Of a stretch of 29,596 nucleotides of DNA, positions 1-7,908 are shown piece after piece. The translations under genes were made by a program, and so were the position numbers. The notes beneath the pieces are model-generated. The model made no database searches. It saw only the letters and a list, made by a program, of their open reading frames with translations, and had not been told where the DNA came from. The stretch is from a virus (taxonomy: Duplodnaviria; Heunggongvirae; Uroviricota; Caudoviricetes): the IMG/VR virus record IMGVR_UViG_2541047905_000021; one strand, 5' to 3'. Numbering within the stretch: position 1 is the first letter of the stretch; every line of letters begins with the position of its first letter.

Positions 1-981
1 TTATAACGTCACTCCGCCTTTTAGAGGATTCAGCGCGACGGCATTTTGCAGGTAGTCAGGCGCAAGGTGCGCATAGGCCATCGTCTGCTGAATGCTCGCA
101 TGTCCCAGAATCTGTTGCAGTGCGATTATATTGCCCCCATTCATCATGAAATGGCTTGCGAATGTATGCCGCAGGATGTGGGTTGCCTGATTGGGTGGTA
201 TATCTGGCTTCACTCTGCGTAAAATCCCGCAAAACTTCTCATAATCAACTTTGAATAATTTAGCGCTGGCCTCCTCTTTAACTTTTTTCTCCAGTTCCTC
301 AGAAATCGGCACGGTTCGCTTTTTACCGTTTTTGGTTTTCAGGAAGGTAACCCTGCAATTTGTAATCTGTGCTGGTTTTAGCGTGGCAACTTCCGTCCAT
401 CTTCCTCCAGTGCTCAGACATAAAAGTGCGACAAGTAAGTCATCACCATCCAAAACATTTAACAGTTTTTCGATTTCTGCTTTTTCCAGGAACGTCATTT
501 CAGGGTTGGCCTCCGCCAGTGGCGGCAGTCCGTGAATTGGGTGTTGCCCGGAAAATTCATCCAATTGAATTAATTTTGTGAACATGCCGGATAATCGGTA
601 CATGTCACGGTTTATCGTTGCGGCACTGATACCATCACGTAGTCGCATGGAACGATAATCCATCAAAGCTCTTTTGCTCATCCGGCTCACTGGTATATCA
701 CCTATGCCGCTGATGGTTTTGAGCAGATGATTAAACTCTTTTGTTCCATGCTCGTGGTTTTGCCCGTGATATTTCCACCAGATGTCCAGCAACTCACTCA
801 AAGTTCTGCGATCTGCTCGCTGACCTGCCCATTCTTTCTGGCTGGCGTAGGCGATTGTGTATCGCTCAAATGCTACAGCCTCAGCTTTTCTTTCAAATTT
901 CCTGCGGATGCGTTTTCCGTCGCGACCGCGAGGTCTAATGTCCACTTCATAGCGTCCATCATCGAGCTTCTTAATTGACAT
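1..981 (-). CDS. int: Tyrosine integrase, P2 Int family
   Basis: Translation from MSIKKLDDGRYEVDIRP aligns with remembered P2 Int N-terminus (MAIKKLDDGRYEV...) and has the C-terminal catalytic-region motifs HxLRHTFA and LGH...T..YAH. ATG at 981 has a GAGGG Shine-Dalgarno 7 nt upstream; the in-frame ATG at 1011 has none. Confidence 0.9.
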   Translation of the reverse strand: MSIKKLDDGRYEVDIRPRGRDGKRIRRKFERKAEAVAFERYTIAYASQKEWAGQRADRRTLSELLDIWWKYHGQNHEHGTKEFNHLLKTISGIGDIPVSRMSKRALMDYRSMRLRDGISAATINRDMYRLSGMFTKLIQLDEFSGQHPIHGLPPLAEANPEMTFLEKAEIEKLLNVLDGDDLLVALLCLSTGGRWTEVATLKPAQITNCRVTFLKTKNGKKRTVPISEELEKKVKEEASAKLFKVDYEKFCGILRRVKPDIPPNQATHILRHTFASHFMMNGGNIIALQQILGHASIQQTMAYAHLAPDYLQNAVALNPLKGGVTL

Positions 982-1050
982 AAGAAAGCCCTCTGACGCT
1001 GTATTCACCATCTTGGTAACAAATGGTGAAAATGTAATGTTTATAGAGTG

Positions 1051-1942: not shown

Positions 1943-2439
1943 CAGTGATGACGCTTAATCTCGTTGAAAAACAGCCAGCAGCTATGCGCCGGATAGTTGG
2001 TAAGCATCTGGCCGTCCCTCGCTGGCAGGAGACATGTGATTATTATAATCAGATGATGGAACGCGAACGGCTAACAGTTTGCTTTCATGCGCAGTTAAAA
2101 CAACGTCACGCAACGATGCGTTTTGAAGAAATGAACGACGTCGAACGTGAACGGCTGGTTTGTGCAATTGATGAACTGCGTGGGGCATTCTCAAAACGCC
2201 GTCAGGTTGGCGCAAGTGAGTATGCATATATTAGTTTTTTAACAGTCAGTCAGCGTCGTACTTTATTTATGCATGCCGGATTGACTGAAAAAGAATTCAA
2301 CCAGCCATACTGGCGAATTAATGAAGAGTCATGTTACTGGCGTGATGCTTTATTCCGTGCATTACGTGAATTATTCAGCCTGTTTGAGTATGCACCGACA
2401 ATTCTGACGTCGGTAAAACCAGAGCAATATCTGCATTAA
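1939..2439 (+). CDS. B: Replication protein B (helicase-loader-like)
   Basis: 166 aa, GGAGG Shine-Dalgarno at 1926-1930; same length and position as P2 gpB. Confidence 0.8.
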   Translation: MTVMTLNLVEKQPAAMRRIVGKHLAVPRWQETCDYYNQMMERERLTVCFHAQLKQRHATMRFEEMNDVERERLVCAIDELRGAFSKRRQVGASEYAYISFLTVSQRRTLFMHAGLTEKEFNQPYWRINEESCYWRDALFRALRELFSLFEYAPTILTSVKPEQYLH

Positions 2440-2502
2440 GTAATTAACCAGAGTTTTTAACGCACTTAATCGTGCGGGGCTTCTTTTTGCCTGGAGAAAG
2501 TT

Positions 2503-2727
2503 ATGCATACAGTTTCTGAAAATCAGTGCGGTATATACGCATTACTGCTGCAACAGGCCAGAACCGAAGCACAGGCCGACGCTGCGACGCGCTTTTCTTC
2601 TCATCTTGATGCCATGATTCGCCACATCACAAAGGCGGAGTTATCCCGCGTGGAGATAGTCGAGCTGCTCAGTCAGGAGTCGGAAAAATTTCACAATATC
2701 GGATTGTCTCGCGGGGAGGTGCTTTGA
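2503..2727 (+). CDS. Hypothetical early protein
   Basis: 74-aa ORF with a Shine-Dalgarno (GGAGAAAG); stop overlaps the next start (translational coupling). Confidence 0.5.
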
Positions 2728-3029
2728 TGTCCTGTTCTCGTTCAGTTGTATTACTGAATAACGCCTTAAAAATCGCCGTTATGAAAAATGGCGATTTGTC
2801 TCTTATTCAACTTGGTCTTGATAAAGAAAAACACGAAATAACTGAGTCTGTTATCGCGATTTATCAGAACGAATTAAACCTCCTGTCTGATGTGGTCAAT
2901 TTACTTGTTAAACGCGCTGTGTTTCACAAGCAAATCTCCTCCGTGGATGAACTGACGAAATTAACGACAGAAATCGCCAGCTATTGCGCTGATGAATTTA
3001 AAAACCTTAACGACAAAAGGAACTGGTAA
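2727..3029 (+). CDS. Hypothetical early protein
   Basis: ATG at 2727 preceded by GGGAGG (2713-2718); 100 aa; the track start at 2724 is a TTG. Confidence 0.5.
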   Translation: MSCSRSVVLLNNALKIAVMKNGDLSLIQLGLDKEKHEITESVIAIYQNELNLLSDVVNLLVKRAVFHKQISSVDELTKLTTEIASYCADEFKNLNDKRNW

Positions 3030-3253
3030 TGCCGGACAACGTAGATTTTATTCAGGAACAACAGGCTGAATTACTGGAGCGCCAGATTAACGCGGCAAGG
3101 GTAAAACATTGCGGTGCTTCTGCGCTGGTTTGCGAAGAGTGTGACGCGCCAATACCTGCTGCCCGTCGTGCGGCTTATCCGTCAGCCACGCGTTGTGTTT
3201 CCTGTCAGTCAGTCTTTGAAGCAAAAAACAAGCATTACCGGAGAATGGCATGA
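3029..3253 (+). CDS. TraR/DksA-family C4 zinc-finger protein
   Basis: 74 aa with CEEC...(17 aa)...CVSC spacing typical of the TraR/DksA zinc finger; P2-like early operons carry such a gene. Confidence 0.65.
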   Translation: MPDNVDFIQEQQAELLERQINAARVKHCGASALVCEECDAPIPAARRAAYPSATRCVSCQSVFEAKNKHYRRMA

Positions 3254-3525
3254 GTATTCGTATCGAAATTGGCGAACGTTATGTCGTTACCAGTGACAGC
3301 TTTCAGTTTATTCTCCACGAGAAAAAGAGAGCGGAAAGCGGTAAAAACGCCGGTCAGGAATGGCTGGCGGTGGTTGGTTATTACCCGAAATTAAGCCAGC
3401 TCGTTTCCGGCCTGATGCATCACGATATTCTGACCGGAAGCGCAAAGTCTTTTGCTGATTTAAACGCGCAGGTTGAGCAACTCAGCAAGCGTTGTTCAGA
3501 GGCTTTTGGCTCATATGGCCGTTAA
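3250..3525 (+). CDS. Hypothetical early protein
   Basis: 91-aa ORF, GGAG Shine-Dalgarno at 3239-3242; its 3' end overlaps the A start. Confidence 0.5.
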   Translation: MSIRIEIGERYVVTSDSFQFILHEKKRAESGKNAGQEWLAVVGYYPKLSQLVSGLMHHDILTGSAKSFADLNAQVEQLSKRCSEAFGSYGR

Positions 3526-5791
3526 AGCCTCCGGGCGTTTTGTCCCTCCGTCAACATTTGCTGCAGGTACCGGTAAGACGTTTACCGGTGCTTATGCATG
3601 GAACGCGCCACGCGAGGCCGTCGGGCGCGAAAGACCCCTTACACGTGACGAGATGCGTCAGGTGCAAGGTGTTTTATCCACGATTAACCGCCTGCCTTAC
3701 TTTTTGCGCTCGCTGTTTACTTCACGCTATGACTACATCCGGCGCAATAAAAGCCCGCTACACGGGTTTTATTTCCTCACATCCACTTTTCAGCGTCGTT
3801 TATGGCCGCGTATTGAGCGCGTTAATCAGCGCCATGAAATGAATACCGACGCGTCGTTGCTGTTTCTGGCAGAGCGTGACCATTATGCGCGCCTGCCTGG
3901 AATGAATGACAAGGAGCTGAAAAAGTTTGCCGCCCGTATCTCATCGCAGCTTTTCATGATGTATGAGGAACTCTGCGATGCCTGGGTGGATGCGCATGGC
4001 GAAAAAGAATCGCTGTTTACGGATGAGGCGCAGGCTCACCTGTATGGTCATGTTGCTGGCGCTGCACGTGCTTTCAATATTTCCCCGCTTTTCTGGAAAA
4101 AATACCGTAAAGGACAGATGACCACGAGGCAGGCATATTCTGCCATTGCCCGCCTGTTTAACGATGAGTGGTGGACTCATCAGCTTAAAGGCCAGCGTAT
4201 GCGCTGGCATGAGGCGTTACTGATTGCTGTCGGGGAGGTCAATAAAGACCGTTCACCTTATGCCAGTAAACATGCCATTCGTGATGTGCGTGCGCGCCGC
4301 CAGGCAAATCTGGAATTTCTTAAATCGTGTGACCTTGAAAACAGGGAAACCGGCGAGCGCATCGACCTTATCAGTAAGGTGATGGGCAGTATTTCTAATC
4401 CTGAAATTCGCCGGATGGAGCTGATGAACACCATCGCCGGTATTGAGCGTTACGCCGCCGCAGAGGGTGATGTGGGGATGTTTATCACGCTTACCGCGCC
4501 GTCAAAGTATCACCCGACACGTCAGGTTGGAAAAGGCGAAAATAAAACCGTCCAGCTTAATCACGGCTGGAATGATGAGGCATTTAATCCAAAGGATGCG
4601 CAGCGTTATCTCTGCCGTATCTGGAGCCTGATGCGCACGGCATTCAAGGATAATGATTTACAGGTCTACGGTTTGCGAGTCGTCGAGCCACACCACGACG
4701 GAACGCCGCACTGGCATATGATGCTTTTTTGTAATCCACGCCAGCGTAACCAGATTATCGAAATCATGCGTCGCTATGCGCTCAAAGAGGATGGCGACGA
4801 AAGAGGAGCCGCGCGAAACCGTTTTCAGGCAAAACACCTTAACCGGGGCGGTGCTGCGGGATATATCGCGAAATACATTTCAAAAAATATCGACGGCTAT
4901 GCACTGGATGGTCAGCTCGATAACGATACCGGCAGACCGCTGAAAGATACTGCGGCGGCTGTTACCGCATGGGCGTCAACGTGGCGCATCCCGCAATTTA
5001 AAACGGTTGGCCTGCCGACAATGGGAGCTTACCGTGAGCTACGTAAATTGCCTCGCGGCGTCAGCATTGCTGATGAATTTGACGAACGCGTGGAGGCTGC
5101 ACGCGCCGCCGCAGACAGTGGCGATTTTGCGCTGTATATCAGCGCGCAGGGCGGGGCAAATGTCCCGCGCGATTGTCAGACTGTCAGGGTTGCCCGTAGC
5201 CCGTCGGATGACGTTAACGAGTACGAGGAAGAAGTCGAGAGAGTGGTCGGCATTTACGCGCCGCATCTCGGCGCGCGTCATATTCATATCACCAGAACGA
5301 CGGACTGGCGCATTGTGCCGAAAGTTCCGGTCGTTGAGCCTTTGACTTTAAAAAGCGGCATCGCCGCGCCTCGGAGTCCTGTCAATAACTGTGGAAAGCT
5401 CACTGGTGGTGATACTTCGTTACCGGCTCCCACACCCTCTGAGCACGCCGTAGCAGTGCTTAATCTGGTTGATGACGGTGTCATCGAATGGAGTGACCCG
5501 GAGGTCGTGAGGACGCTCAGGGATGCATTAAAACACGGCCTGAAAACACCAAATCGTCAGCAAAGAAACGGAAGCCCGTTAAAACCACATGAAATAGCAC
5601 CGTCGGCCAGACTGACCCGGTCGGAACGATTGCAAATTACCCGTATCCGCGTTGACCTCGCTCAGAACGGTATCAGGCCGCAACGATGGGAGCTTGAGGC
5701 GCTGGCGCGTGGCGCGACCGTAAATTATGACGGGAAAAAATTCACGTATCCGGTTGCTGATGAGTGGCCGGGGTTCTCGTTACCCATTTGA
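3515..5791 (+). CDS. A: Replication initiation protein A (HUH rolling-circle endonuclease)
   Basis: Large ORF with HUH motif HWHMMLF (about 4709-4729) and paired-tyrosine active-site motif YIAKYISK (about 4861-4884). The track start at 3473 is a TTG; the first ATG is 3515 (759 aa, close to P2 gpA). Confidence 0.9.
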   Translation: MAVKASGRFVPPSTFAAGTGKTFTGAYAWNAPREAVGRERPLTRDEMRQVQGVLSTINRLPYFLRSLFTSRYDYIRRNKSPLHGFYFLTSTFQRRLWPRIERVNQRHEMNTDASLLFLAERDHYARLPGMNDKELKKFAARISSQLFMMYEELCDAWVDAHGEKESLFTDEAQAHLYGHVAGAARAFNISPLFWKKYRKGQMTTRQAYSAIARLFNDEWWTHQLKGQRMRWHEALLIAVGEVNKDRSPYASKHAIRDVRARRQANLEFLKSCDLENRETGERIDLISKVMGSISNPEIRRMELMNTIAGIERYAAAEGDVGMFITLTAPSKYHPTRQVGKGENKTVQLNHGWNDEAFNPKDAQRYLCRIWSLMRTAFKDNDLQVYGLRVVEPHHDGTPHWHMMLFCNPRQRNQIIEIMRRYALKEDGDERGAARNRFQAKHLNRGGAAGYIAKYISKNIDGYALDGQLDNDTGRPLKDTAAAVTAWASTWRIPQFKTVGLPTMGAYRELRKLPRGVSIADEFDERVEAARAAADSGDFALYISAQGGANVPRDCQTVRVARSPSDDVNEYEEEVERVVGIYAPHLGARHIHITRTTDWRIVPKVPVVEPLTLKSGIAAPRSPVNNCGKLTGGDTSLPAPTPSEHAVAVLNLVDDGVIEWSDPEVVRTLRDALKHGLKTPNRQQRNGSPLKPHEIAPSARLTRSERLQITRIRVDLAQNGIRPQRWELEALARGATVNYDGKKFTYPVADEWPGFSLPI

Positions 5792-6051
5792 GTAAAAATA
5801 CAACGTGATTTGATATGGCATTGAATGGCTTATGCGGAGCAGTTATGGGGCAGCAGAAGGTCAATAGCATGCTGAATTAGAAGGCTAAATGCTATTGAGT
5901 GACTAGCATGTCGGTAAGGACAGCCGTTTGATCCTGGTCATAAAAGGCCATCCATTTAGTCTAATAAAATCATTGCGGGTAACCTTATGTCGACGCATAA
6001 TTCGTCTTGAGCGAAGTCTTGTCAGTCTTTCATCGTATTGATGATGGGCGC

Positions 6052-6081
6052 AAAAAAACCACCCTGGCAGGTGGTTTTTTT
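6052..6081. terminator. Bidirectional intrinsic terminator (A-run, CCACC/GGTGG stem, T-run)
   Basis: aaaaaaaCCACCctggcaGGTGGttttttt: 5-bp GC-rich stem flanked by an A7 and a T7 run, so it reads as a terminator on both strands. Confidence 0.7.
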
Positions 6082-6093
6082 GTTTGAAGCATA

Positions 6094-6207
6094 TTAAAGC
6101 ATAATGCTGACATTGATATTACTGACGTTTACTGACAAACCACTCGGACTACCGTTTGGATAGCCAAAGAGGGCCAGAACGAGAATGCAGTAATAGCATT
6201 TCTTCAT
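6094..6207 (-). CDS. Candidate 37-aa small hydrophobic protein, unknown function
   Basis: ATG at 6207 with AGGAGG 4 nt upstream (short spacing); translation MKKCYYCILVLALFGYPNGSPSGLSVNVSNINVSIML; terminator immediately downstream. It is the internal part of the 88-aa track ORF 6094-6360. Confidence 0.3.
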   Translation of the reverse strand: MKKCYYCILVLALFGYPNGSPSGLSVNVSNINVSIML

Positions 6208-6685
6208 ATTGCCTCCTGTAAGTAGAGGGCAACTTCCACCGGTATATGCGCTTCTTAGGTGGAATGACTTTTGAGCGAAGTCTTGCCCTGAAATAATGCT
6301 CTGTTTAAACGCAAAGTGATTTGGCATATCACCGAACAGAGAGCCGGAAAAACACAACATATAGTATGTCGTTGTTTCTAGACATACATTCTATGTTGTG
6401 TAACAAGGGCTTTGCATTAAACATGTTTGAGATTTTATTGATGTAGCTCAAAGTAAAAAACAGAGACTACGGATGATAAGGTCTTGAAAGCAATGTAAAT
6501 TTTTTAAAGTTGCCAATTGCTTAAAAATGTACAGTTGCGGTATGGCGTACTTAAAAAGCTATGCATGCAACAAGTGAATGTTTTTGCATGCGTTGGGGAT
6601 GTCCGTTCAGGCTGCGTGCGGTCAGGACTGGTGCGGATCCATAGTATCTATGCAACTGCATTAAAACCGCCCCGTGAAGCGGGCG

Positions 6686-6873: not shown

Positions 6874-7908
6874 TCAGCCGTTGTCAGTGTCCAGTGAGTA
6901 GTTTTTAAAGCGGATGACCTCCTGACCGAGCCAGCCGTTTATCTCGCGGATCCTGTCCTGTAGCGGGATAAGCTCATTGCGGACAAAGACCTTTGCCACT
7001 TTCTCAATATCACCCAACGACCCGACGTTCTCCGGCTTGCCGCCCATCAACTGAAAGGGGATGCGGTGCGCGTCCAGCAGGTCAGTGGCGCTGGCTTTTT
7101 TGATATTAAAAAAATCGTCCTTCGTCGCTACTTCACTGAGGGGGATAATTTTAATGCCGTCAGCTTTCCCCTGTGGCGCATAGAGAAACAGATTTTTAAA
7201 GTTGTTGCGGCCTTTCGACTTAACCATGTTTTCGCGAAGCATTTCGATATCGTTGCGATCCTGCACGGCATCGGTGACGTACATGATGTATCCGGCATGT
7301 GCGCCATTTTCGTAATACTTGCGGCGGAACAGCGTGGCCGACTCATTCAGCCAGGCAGAGTTAAGGGCGCTGAGATATTCCGGCAGGCCGTACAGCTCCT
7401 GATTAATATCCGGCTCCAGCAGGTGAAACACGGAGCCGGGCGCGAAAGGTATCGGCTCGTTGAAGGACGGCACCCACCAGTAAACATCCTCCTCCACGCC
7501 ACGGCGGGTATATTTTGCCGGTGAGGTTTCCAGTCTGATGACCTTACCGGTGGTGCTGTAACGCTTTTCCAGAAACGCATTACCGAACACCAGAAAATCC
7601 AGCACAAAGCGGCTGAAATCCTGCTGGGAAAGCCACGGGTGCGGGATAAATGTCGAGGCCAGAATATTGCGTTTGACGTAAATCGGGGAGCTGTGATGCA
7701 CGGCAGCACGCAGGCTTTTTGCCAGACCGGTAAAGCTGATTGGTGGCTCATACCATCTGCCGTTACTGATGCACTCGACATAATCCAGAATGTCACGGCG
7801 GTCGAGTACCGGCACCGGATCACCAAAGGTGAATGCCTCCATTTTCGGGGCGCTGGCGGTCATTGTTTTTGCCGCAGGTTGCGGTGTTTTCCCTTTTTTC
7901 TTGCTCAT
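6874..7908 (-). CDS. Q: Portal protein
   Basis: 344 aa, same length and position as P2 gpQ; start overlaps the P stop (ATGA). Confidence 0.9.
   Translation of the reverse strand: MSKKKGKTPQPAAKTMTASAPKMEAFTFGDPVPVLDRRDILDYVECISNGRWYEPPISFTGLAKSLRAAVHHSSPIYVKRNILASTFIPHPWLSQQDFSRFVLDFLVFGNAFLEKRYSTTGKVIRLETSPAKYTRRGVEEDVYWWVPSFNEPIPFAPGSVFHLLEPDINQELYGLPEYLSALNSAWLNESATLFRRKYYENGAHAGYIMYVTDAVQDRNDIEMLRENMVKSKGRNNFKNLFLYAPQGKADGIKIIPLSEVATKDDFFNIKKASATDLLDAHRIPFQLMGGKPENVGSLGDIEKVAKVFVRNELIPLQDRIREINGWLGQEVIRFKNYSLDTDNG

Follow-up and report, generated by a model that had tools for sequence, protein, structure and literature searches.

The window analyzed here, the 29,596-nucleotide (nt) sequence of IMG/VR virus record IMGVR_UViG_2541047905_000021, is a P2-like (Peduovirus) prophage, in which integrase, the replication endonuclease gpA, the P2 cohesive-end sequence (cos), and the portal gene Q (gpQ) serve as landmarks. 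The interval between gpA and cos/gpQ is a cargo slot that contains tin and old in P2 and has been investigated as a hotspot of anti-phage cargo (PMC9122126). RefSeq annotates no gene in this slot, either in the window locus or in its Escherichia coli relatives. The slot of the window houses a cassette of ~550 bp with two copies (A and B) of a 15-mer, a 37-codon open reading frame (ORF), a bidirectional terminator, and the predicted promoters of two convergent transcripts, a small RNA (sRNA) and a messenger RNA (mRNA) with a structured leader. The cassette recurs at 60–99% identity in unrelated contexts, namely P2-like prophages, an N15-like phage-plasmid, and more than 400 IncF plasmids.

The 15-mer repeat in the gpA–gpQ slot

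The 15-mer TTGAGCGAAGTCTTG occurs exactly at 6007–6021 and 6271–6285, both on the plus strand and 264 nt apart. An initial annotation, made from the sequence alone, had reported these two copies and no other, and a search of both strands of the window allowing up to two mismatches agreed in giving no third copy. In shuffled sequences the mean number of matches was 0.10, and none of 100 shuffles reached two. Direct reading of the sequence also confirmed the terminator at 6052–6081, the Shine–Dalgarno (SD) sequence AGGAGG, and the 37-codon minus-strand ORF of that annotation. The length of the 15-mer is not significant by itself, because a repeat search of the window found four other exact direct repeats of 16–17 nt, all long-range; the case therefore depends on the comparison with homologues. 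The pair is meaningful through the proximity of its copies and, above all, through their conservation and covariation in homologues. If one G:U wobble is allowed, the complementary stretch in the window grows to 17 nt. The features of the locus are listed in Table 1.

Table 1. Landmarks of the window and elements of the cassette, in order of position
Feature	Position	Strand	Details
Integrase	1..1011	-	Window landmark
Replication endonuclease gpA	3473..5791	+	Window landmark
Whole conserved mobile cassette	5960..6510 (approximate)		Delimited by homology with L039 and L040–L048
Predicted sRNA promoter	5973..6001	+	-35 TTGCGG 5973–5978, 17-nt spacer, -10 CATAAT 5996–6001
Repeat copy A, predicted sRNA 5' seed	6007..6021	+	Exact copy; pairing segment 6009–6023, up to 6025
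Predicted sRNA of ~76 nt, putative antitoxin	6009..6084	+	5' seed, stem-loop 1, terminator with U-tail
sRNA stem-loop 1	6025..6049	+	Sequence replaced, pairing kept
Bidirectional intrinsic terminator, common to both transcripts	6052..6081	both	A7-CCACC-CUGGCA-GGUGG-U7; G+C-rich hairpin with A7/T7 flanks
37-codon ORF encoding MKKCYYCILVLALFGYPNGSPSGLSVNVSNINVSIML	6207..6094	-	Coding signature; stop 6096–6094
Shine–Dalgarno AGGAGG	6217–6212	-	4 nt from ATG
Anti-SD segment UUGCCCUCU	6224..6232	-	Can pair with SD region or with GGGCAA 6288–6283 (single-sequence folds)
Leader hairpin H2	6234..6264	-	UUCCACC...GGUGGAA; covariation CCACC/GGUGG, CCGCC/GGCGG, CCUUCAG/CUGAAGG
Repeat copy B, predicted sRNA target in mRNA leader	6271..6287	-	5'-GGCAAGACUUCGCUCAA-3'; ends 65 nt upstream of AUG
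Leader compound stem-loop H1	6299..6341	-	Outer CUCUGUU/AACAGAG, inner GGUGAU/AUCACU with G:U pair
Predicted mRNA promoter	6388..6417	-	-35 ATGCAA 6417–6412, 18-nt spacer, -10 TAGAAT 6393–6388; inferred transcription start ~6381
Conserved A/T-rich block upstream of mRNA promoter	6418..6470		Conserved even in the most diverged L044, L053, and L054
P2 cohesive-end sequence (cos)	~6686–6704		Matches right end of P2
Portal gene Q (gpQ)	6874..7908	-	Window landmark

Two predicted convergent RNAs and their pairing

Copies A and B stay matched across nine distinct sequence types, and both are present in every ORF-retaining homologue with the relevant sequence. When the seed (copy A) was joined to the reverse complement of the target (copy B) in these nine types, the 15 seed–target pairs were 99.3% paired, as compared with 27–47% in controls with a slid partner, and four of the pairs were changed on both sides, a number that none of 500 shuffles reached. 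For example, a Salmonella plasmid (L044) carries GAGCaAAGcCTTa in both copies, corresponding to three concerted substitutions (G5A, U9C, and G13A in the seed). At one position, both copies carry T in locus L053 and C in the Klebsiella type, and the window and the N15-like phage-plasmid (L039) show the T/C intermediate. The one-sided differences, seven in all, consist of T in copy A with C in copy B, or of G in copy A with A in copy B. These yield G:U pairs in 7/7 cases for a plus-strand RNA of copy A with a minus-strand RNA of copy B, versus mismatches in 7/7 cases in the reverse orientation; the pairing orientation is therefore assigned as sRNA from the plus strand of A and mRNA from the minus strand of B. 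Additional A/B combinations were found in 28 metagenome loci, none of them disruptive. The predicted duplex energy is -28.4 kcal/mol in the window and ranges from -25.6 to -33.3 kcal/mol across nine homologues, with shuffled seeds at -15 to -19 kcal/mol; no second strong seed target was found within the window. At the computational level, these patterns establish the predicted pairing relationship and the strands involved, and they lend strong support to the suggestion of the initial annotation that the repeat is a shared RNA-pairing site, the changes in both copies being concerted or wobble-only. It is very probable that the repeat represents an sRNA–mRNA pairing that controls a real peptide gene.

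The spacing from A to B is nearly constant (263–269 bp) and copy A overlaps the predicted transcript start, as might also be expected if the copies were DNA operators of a single DNA-binding protein, for instance one that loops the 264 bp (~25 helical turns) between them. The cassette, however, encodes no DNA-binding protein, and its hosts range over Escherichia, Klebsiella, and Salmonella, so that a host factor would have had to co-evolve to account for the three concerted substitutions of L044. Moreover, RNA pairing predicts the strict G:U-compatible asymmetry of the one-sided changes, which protein recognition does not. We therefore regard the operator explanation as very improbable.

The sRNA is predicted from a plus-strand promoter immediately upstream of copy A, which scores at the 99.93rd percentile of the window with a position weight matrix, and of which TTGCG(G/A/T) and GCATAATT are kept in all homologues with a variable spacer between them. 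In every homologue, the -10 element and the first paired G of the repeat are separated by 7 nt; copy A thus starts 7 nt past the promoter and would form the 5' end of the predicted sRNA. From G6009 on, the bases are conserved or change jointly with copy B, and the preceding base is free to vary, which fits transcription start at G6009. The conserved promoter and terminator together point to the existence of the sRNA and to both of its ends. Its predicted fold has a minimum free energy of -28.8 kcal/mol (z = -4.4), and stem-loop 1 contains five covarying pairs in the consensus structure, for example UCAUC/GAUGA versus CCUAA/UUAGG. Among the curated sRNA and antitoxin covariance models of Rfam 15, only RNAI, Phe_leader, and P9 gave matches, all sub-threshold and over the terminator hairpin. 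As for Klebsiella pneumoniae MGH 78578, the strain of a differential RNA sequencing (dRNA-seq) study (PMC10907235), the cassette is absent from the first 150 kb of its plasmid pKPN3, the part that was checked.

On the opposite strand, ATGCAA-18-TA(G/A)AAT is the only minus-strand promoter-like site that occupies one alignment column in 10/10 diverse homologues. It scores 6.9 (99.87th percentile), the length of its spacer being fixed and the sequence variable, and no LexA box was found at this promoter. The inferred leader is 161–179 nt long across homologues and ~174 nt in the window. In hairpins H1 and H2 of the leader, 97% of cells are paired versus 41–53% with the partner slid, and seven pairs are changed on both sides versus 1.7 in shuffles, none of 500 reaching seven. 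The leader elements contain 20 G:U cells versus one A:C cell, which assigns the structured leader RNA to the minus strand. In addition, a long-range helix joins GGGCAA (6288–6283), overlapping the predicted sRNA site, with UUGCCC (6232–6227), and covaries with inclusion of a compensating indel (GGGCAA/UUGCCC versus GGUGGCA/UGCCGCC versus GGUGGUA/UGCCACC); its 3' strand overlaps the anti-SD segment, for which AGGAGGCAA is the alternative partner. The SD sequence is predicted to be mostly base-paired, with a probability of being unpaired of 0.27–0.49 across homologues, and the predicted sRNA site ends 64–67 nt upstream of AUG in every homologue.

The A/T-rich block upstream of the mRNA promoter (TTTTTACTTTG..ATCAATAAAA..AAACAT..TGATGCAAA) may be an UP element, a second promoter, or a regulator site, and contains a weaker promoter-like site, TTGAGC-17-AAACAT. 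RNAalifold pairs its GAUGCA with UGCAU of codons 7–8 of the ORF, both sides being invariant. At 6350–6400, an imperfect inverted repeat, ACACAACATA...TATGTTGTGT, spans the predicted -10 element and mRNA start, where the other homologues carry different ones. It may act as an operator or form a 5' hairpin.

Both predicted transcripts share the terminator, where their predicted 3' ends are fully complementary over ~35 nt. The terminator is invariant in every full-length cassette examined, even at ~60% identity elsewhere, with a single loop change in L043. This invariance, which includes the loop, suggests an extra role, possibly a first loop–loop contact by analogy with the par locus described below; the plus-strand loop CUGG fits the YUNR motif, and its use as a YUNR-type contact is speculative. 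The terminator (AAAAAAACCACC-CTGGCA-GGTGGTTTTTTTGTTT, 6052–6085) is also closely similar to the hairpin and tail at the 3' end of RNA I of the ColE1 type, matching many plasmids of 2–7 kb at 92–97% over 33–38 nt, with a weak Rfam match to RNAI (E = 0.04–0.06). The likeness may reflect convergence on a strong terminator, or common ancestry or function.

The encoded peptide and the case for a type I toxin–antitoxin-like family

The ORF has 37 codons in nine sequence types, and two further types have 38 and 39 codons, respectively. Its ratio of nonsynonymous to synonymous substitution rates (dN/dS) is 0.12–0.41 in all informative pairs, and the variable sites are distributed over the three codon positions as 19/11/29, the third varying most. 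By these computational measures, the ORF is a coding sequence under purifying selection. The peptide begins with M-[KND]-[KR], followed by C7, ILVL-x-LFGYP-x-GS-x-SG, and then an alternation of hydrophobic and polar residues up to the C-terminus, the conserved motif being C-I-L-V-L-x-L-F-G-Y-P-x-G-S-x-S-G-x-S. Gene calls of the ORF are rare, with three proteins found in a search of 5.8 billion clusters and seven in a HMMER search of 1.84 billion sequences. One database protein (P0003, 71 residues) agrees with the peptide over the initial 16 residues, MKKCYYCILVLALFGY, and has nothing in common with it beyond them; the ORF was probably frameshifted or recombined in this copy. An 88-codon in-frame extension (6360..6094) was considered and rejected on the basis of the leader indels and the RNA-type covariation.

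We favour the interpretation that the cassette represents a new family of type I toxin–antitoxin-like systems, controlled by an antisense RNA and resembling par (Fst) in architecture, and assign to it a probability of roughly 0.7. As in type I systems, a gene for a small (<60 residues) hydrophobic peptide is present, here of 37 codons and with a hydrophobic segment shorter than in classical members, and an RNA complementary to its mRNA is predicted, with a seed–target helix of 15–17 nt in addition to the ~35-nt overlap at the terminator. The idea of a type I toxin-like peptide, raised as one possibility in the initial annotation, gains strong support from the coding signature of the ORF, the convergent conserved promoters, and the covarying leader. 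On whether the peptide itself is a toxin in the toxin–antitoxin sense, the evidence leans slightly toward the affirmative.

What we only infer, namely where the transcripts begin and end, that the sRNA acts as a repressor, that the peptide is toxic, and what role the cassette has, would fit together as follows. The sigma-70 promoter on the plus strand would give rise to the ~76-nt sRNA, the first 15–17 nt of which are copy A, and the convergent minus-strand promoter to an mRNA of ~330 nt, consisting of the ~174-nt structured leader, the ORF, and the same terminator reversed. The leader would keep the SD sequence largely sequestered. The upstream site includes a GG(U)GGC element resembling an SD sequence, together with one strand of the long-range helix; binding of the sRNA there would block ribosome loading of a standby type and/or trigger cleavage of the duplex. 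The peptide, assumed to be harmful, would be made only once the short-lived sRNA is lost. Such a device could serve the addiction to, or stabilisation of, the carrier element, or the exclusion of competitors, a role that fits the presence of the cassette on plasmids, on a phage-plasmid, and in the P2 defence hotspot. A further mechanism, in which binding of the sRNA frees the anti-SD segment to close the SD hairpin, was examined by partition-function folding of ten homologues with the site blocked, and was unsupported.

Several observations weigh against the toxin–antitoxin interpretation. In the same folding, blocking of the sRNA site left the predicted SD accessibility unchanged in 10/10 homologues, and the -35 elements of both predicted promoters are weak, with 3/6 matches each. 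The hydrophobic segment of the peptide spans only ~13 residues, as compared with the 18–20-residue helices of Hok, TisB, and Fst; the tail is Ser/Asn-rich, uncharged, polar, and strand-like; and AlphaFold places a helix at residues 3–14 only, with low confidence (predicted local distance difference test score, pLDDT, 54). The peptide has no family match in Pfam (E <= 10), NCBIfam, PHROG (best E = 0.34), or PADLOC, so that its toxin status rests on the design of the cassette. Finally, the number of independent events is modest, since the homologues, most of them from Enterobacterales, share common descent.

The pairing could be real and the peptide nevertheless not a toxin, being instead a small envelope or exported peptide under sRNA control, either benign or specialised (for phage or plasmid exclusion, or signalling), with an sRNA that may also regulate host mRNAs in trans. 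The short hydrophobic stretch, the polar tail, and the lack of likeness to known toxin families agree with this explanation, as do the build of the sRNA from a 5' seed, a hairpin, and a U-tail, typical of trans-acting Hfq sRNAs, and the usual occupation of the P2 slot by defence genes (PMC9122126). However, the cassette travels alone on plasmids and prophages, and the combination of a sequestered SD sequence, an antisense RNA of its own, and a terminator common to both transcripts is a hallmark design for holding back a harmful product; nor is there another strong seed target within the window. We consider a non-toxic peptide unlikely.

A bolder proposal, which we consider rather less likely still, is that the peptide is a Sec-exported beta-strand effector acting on the envelope, not a helical membrane toxin, and belongs to a new antisense-controlled class. 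Its most conserved part, G-Y-P-x-G-S-x-S-G, directly follows a short n-region and h-region (MKK and CYYCILVLALF), an arrangement in which S-x-S|G recalls the c-region and cleavage site of a signal peptide of the Sec type. If cut there, the peptide would release to the periplasm a fragment of ~15 residues, G-[LW]-S-V-N-V-S-N-I-N-V-S-I-M-L, as an amphipathic strand, and the alternating pattern of this putative product resembles the C-terminal beta-signal of outer-membrane proteins. If true, the cassette could be a device for abortive infection, exclusion, or addiction in the P2 hotspot and on IncF plasmids.

Among known systems, the par locus of the Enterococcus faecalis plasmid pAD1 combines convergent promoters with direct repeats, a terminator that works in both directions, and a hairpin that sequesters the SD sequence (PMC7472228). 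The toxin–antitoxin interpretation draws on the likeness to par (Fst / RNA I–RNA II), as the cassette is predicted to be transcribed convergently across direct repeats into a bidirectional terminator, and the intramolecular hairpin over the SD sequence, the peptide of ~35 residues, and the location on plasmids and phages are comparable as well (PMC7472228). In contrast, the repeats of par cover the start codon and SD sequence, whereas the target in the cassette lies 64–67 nt upstream of AUG. Fst/Ldr peptides have PXXXG and a charged tail, and the cassette peptide has neither and gave no match (E <= 10) in Pfam, a library expected to hold the models of the Fst and Ldr toxins. The YUNR motif lies in the toxin RNA of par, versus the YUNR-like motif in the terminator loop of the sRNA here, and the relatives of par are Gram-positive, whereas the hosts of the cassette are Enterobacterales.

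TisB/IstR-1 and ZorO/OrzO, like the cassette as predicted here, have a long structured 5' untranslated region of ~170 nt, a sequestered ribosome-binding site with a 15–20-nt stretch complementary to the sRNA lying far upstream of it, and a primary transcript that is probably translationally inert. In these systems, the sRNA gene is located upstream and transcribed divergently, no terminator is shared, and the toxins are all-helical and hydrophobic; tisB and dinQ are under LexA control. The cassette resembles TisB/IstR-1, ZorO/OrzO, and DinQ/AgrB in the predicted position of the sRNA site, far upstream of a sequestered ribosome-binding site in a long leader, and differs from them in its convergent, downstream sRNA and in the lack of toxin homology and of a LexA box.

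The Hok/Sok family occurs on R1, F, and IncF plasmids, including pKPN3. The cassette is similarly of an addiction type located on plasmids and prophages, and its Cys-rich, hydrophobic N-terminal stretch, C-I-L-V-L-T-L-F-G-Y, is somewhat like the transmembrane segment of Hok. It differs in having no Hok_Gef match in Pfam or NCBIfam and no mok-like frame (an upstream in-frame extension of the ORF is not conserved, and there are indels in the leader), in a peptide of 37 versus ~50 residues, and in a predicted antisense RNA that is not cis-encoded over the translation start. In Staphylococcus aureus, SprA1AS overlaps its target at the 3' end and acts via a non-overlapping 5' domain, as proposed for the cassette, and TimP of the Salmonella TimP/TimR pair, a small toxin with a cleavable signal peptide, provides a precedent for the exported-peptide proposal. 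SprA1/SprA1AS and TimP/TimR nevertheless have no sequence relationship to the cassette, with other hosts and gene arrangements, and Rfam (including ryfA/timP-type models) gave no match. Altogether, the cassette lies outside every named family. The literature searched, with incomplete coverage, contained no prior description of the peptide, of the seeds, or of a toxin–antitoxin system of type I in P2-like phages or Klebsiella plasmids.

The gpA–gpQ slot has been examined as a defence hotspot by protein annotation only, and a conserved, selected, and mobile module has been overlooked in it; the same module is unannotated on several hundred large IncF plasmids of Klebsiella, which are vehicles of resistance genes. 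Should it act in addiction, it helps the plasmids to persist while being invisible to current finders of toxin–antitoxin and defence systems. It would be a Gram-negative system with the architecture of par (pAD1) but a distant, standby-type target, and the natural seed variants GAGCGAAGUCUUG and GAGCAAAGCCUUA offer ready-made specificity controls. The atypical peptide may widen the range of type I 'toxins'.

Limits, relatives, and mobility of the cassette

Homology with the N15-like L039 and the IncF loci L040–L048 begins near AATAAA..TTGCG and fades past ~6500. Among 30 distinct P2-type sequences, the diversity per site is 0.13 at 5792–5983, zero in the terminator, ~0.01–0.03 at 6272–6330, and >0.3 past 6530; the P2-like loci thus show low diversity from 6007 to 6510 and a steep rise past 6530. 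The ~770 bp 3' of gpA are present in 191 of 5426 complete E. coli genomes, as two sequence variants with ~99% and ~86% identity, and also in P2-like phage records. The locus of E. coli M15 (NZ_CP185789) shows 100% identity. What comes after this segment varies: cos directly in the window, and in other P2-like prophages cargo that consists of an ImmA/IrrE protein with a hypothetical protein or of a reverse transcriptase.

Outside P2-like prophages, a scan for the terminator found a ~72%-identical cassette in the N15-like linear phage-plasmid L039, between the genes of a RepA-like protein of 1383 residues and a protelomerase-like protein. This copy matches 436 plasmids, mostly conjugative IncFIB/IncFII Klebsiella plasmids, and 395 plasmid records were matched by the peptide with tblastn. 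One carrier of the plasmid cassette is the Klebsiella strain KPNIH1 (plasmid NZ_CP008829). The neighbours of the plasmid cassettes are unrelated (ABC transporters, IS26, IS1, and Rpn), and the cassette occurs on plasmids and prophages without accompanying partner genes. Protein-anchored look-ups added L053 and L054, and further cassettes were found in 28 metagenome contigs; species-representative genomes, scanned with a degenerate pattern of the peptide N-terminus and with a conserved 22-mer, contained no match.

On this comparative evidence, the unit is an autonomous cassette of ~550 bp that carries the repeats within it, and its distribution marks it computationally as mobile. The initial annotation had taken the repeats to bracket the gene unit and had offered a recombination footprint as one explanation. 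Many mobile insertions are indeed flanked by direct repeats, as in a target-site duplication left by a small element, and the other exact 16–17-mers of the window arise through chance or codon bias, as a fortuitous 15-mer could. Both copies, however, lie inside the larger cassette (~5960–6510), ~50 and ~225 bp from its borders, and the same repeat is present at unrelated insertion sites in P2-like, N15-like, and IncF contexts, unlike a target-site duplication, on which grounds the footprint reading is rejected; moreover, both copies are kept and co-vary over 30–40% sequence divergence. A footprint or chance repeat is accordingly the least credible of the explanations considered.

Several minor observations concern the cassette and its surroundings. 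The ~170 bp from the gpA stop to the cassette (5792–5960) are P2-specific, being absent in the plasmid and N15-like copies; the two E. coli variants differ most here, and there is no ORF of note. Of the promoter-like sequences on the plus strand of this region, TTGAAA-15-TAAAGT at 6484–6510 scores highest (top 0.01% of the window). It is oriented toward the cargo slot and is kept in P2-like loci whose downstream cargo differs, a conservation that does not extend to the plasmid cassettes; it may serve as the promoter of inserted cargo, and in the window only cos lies in its direction. In a P2-like prophage of E. coli G3 (L003, 2350–3945), the cassette is followed by cos and then, on the gpQ side, by a gene of the reverse-transcriptase family; cargo is therefore possible on either side of cos within the gpA–gpQ interval.

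The metagenome contig Ga0268256_1001162 (L071) has two cassettes, at 3412 and 6332, 2.9 kb apart, which differ in seed, target, and peptide type, with a T/C pairing wobble in one and none in the other; the pair may be an example of coexisting specificity variants. Lastly, at least 10 complete E. coli chromosomes (e.g., NZ_CP185789; L007, 1–2277) have base 1 at the start codon of P2 gpA, and in each of these gpA-rotated chromosomes the match lies at 2278–3126, which suggests that an assembly-rotation tool mistook the prophage gpA for the replication-initiator landmark.

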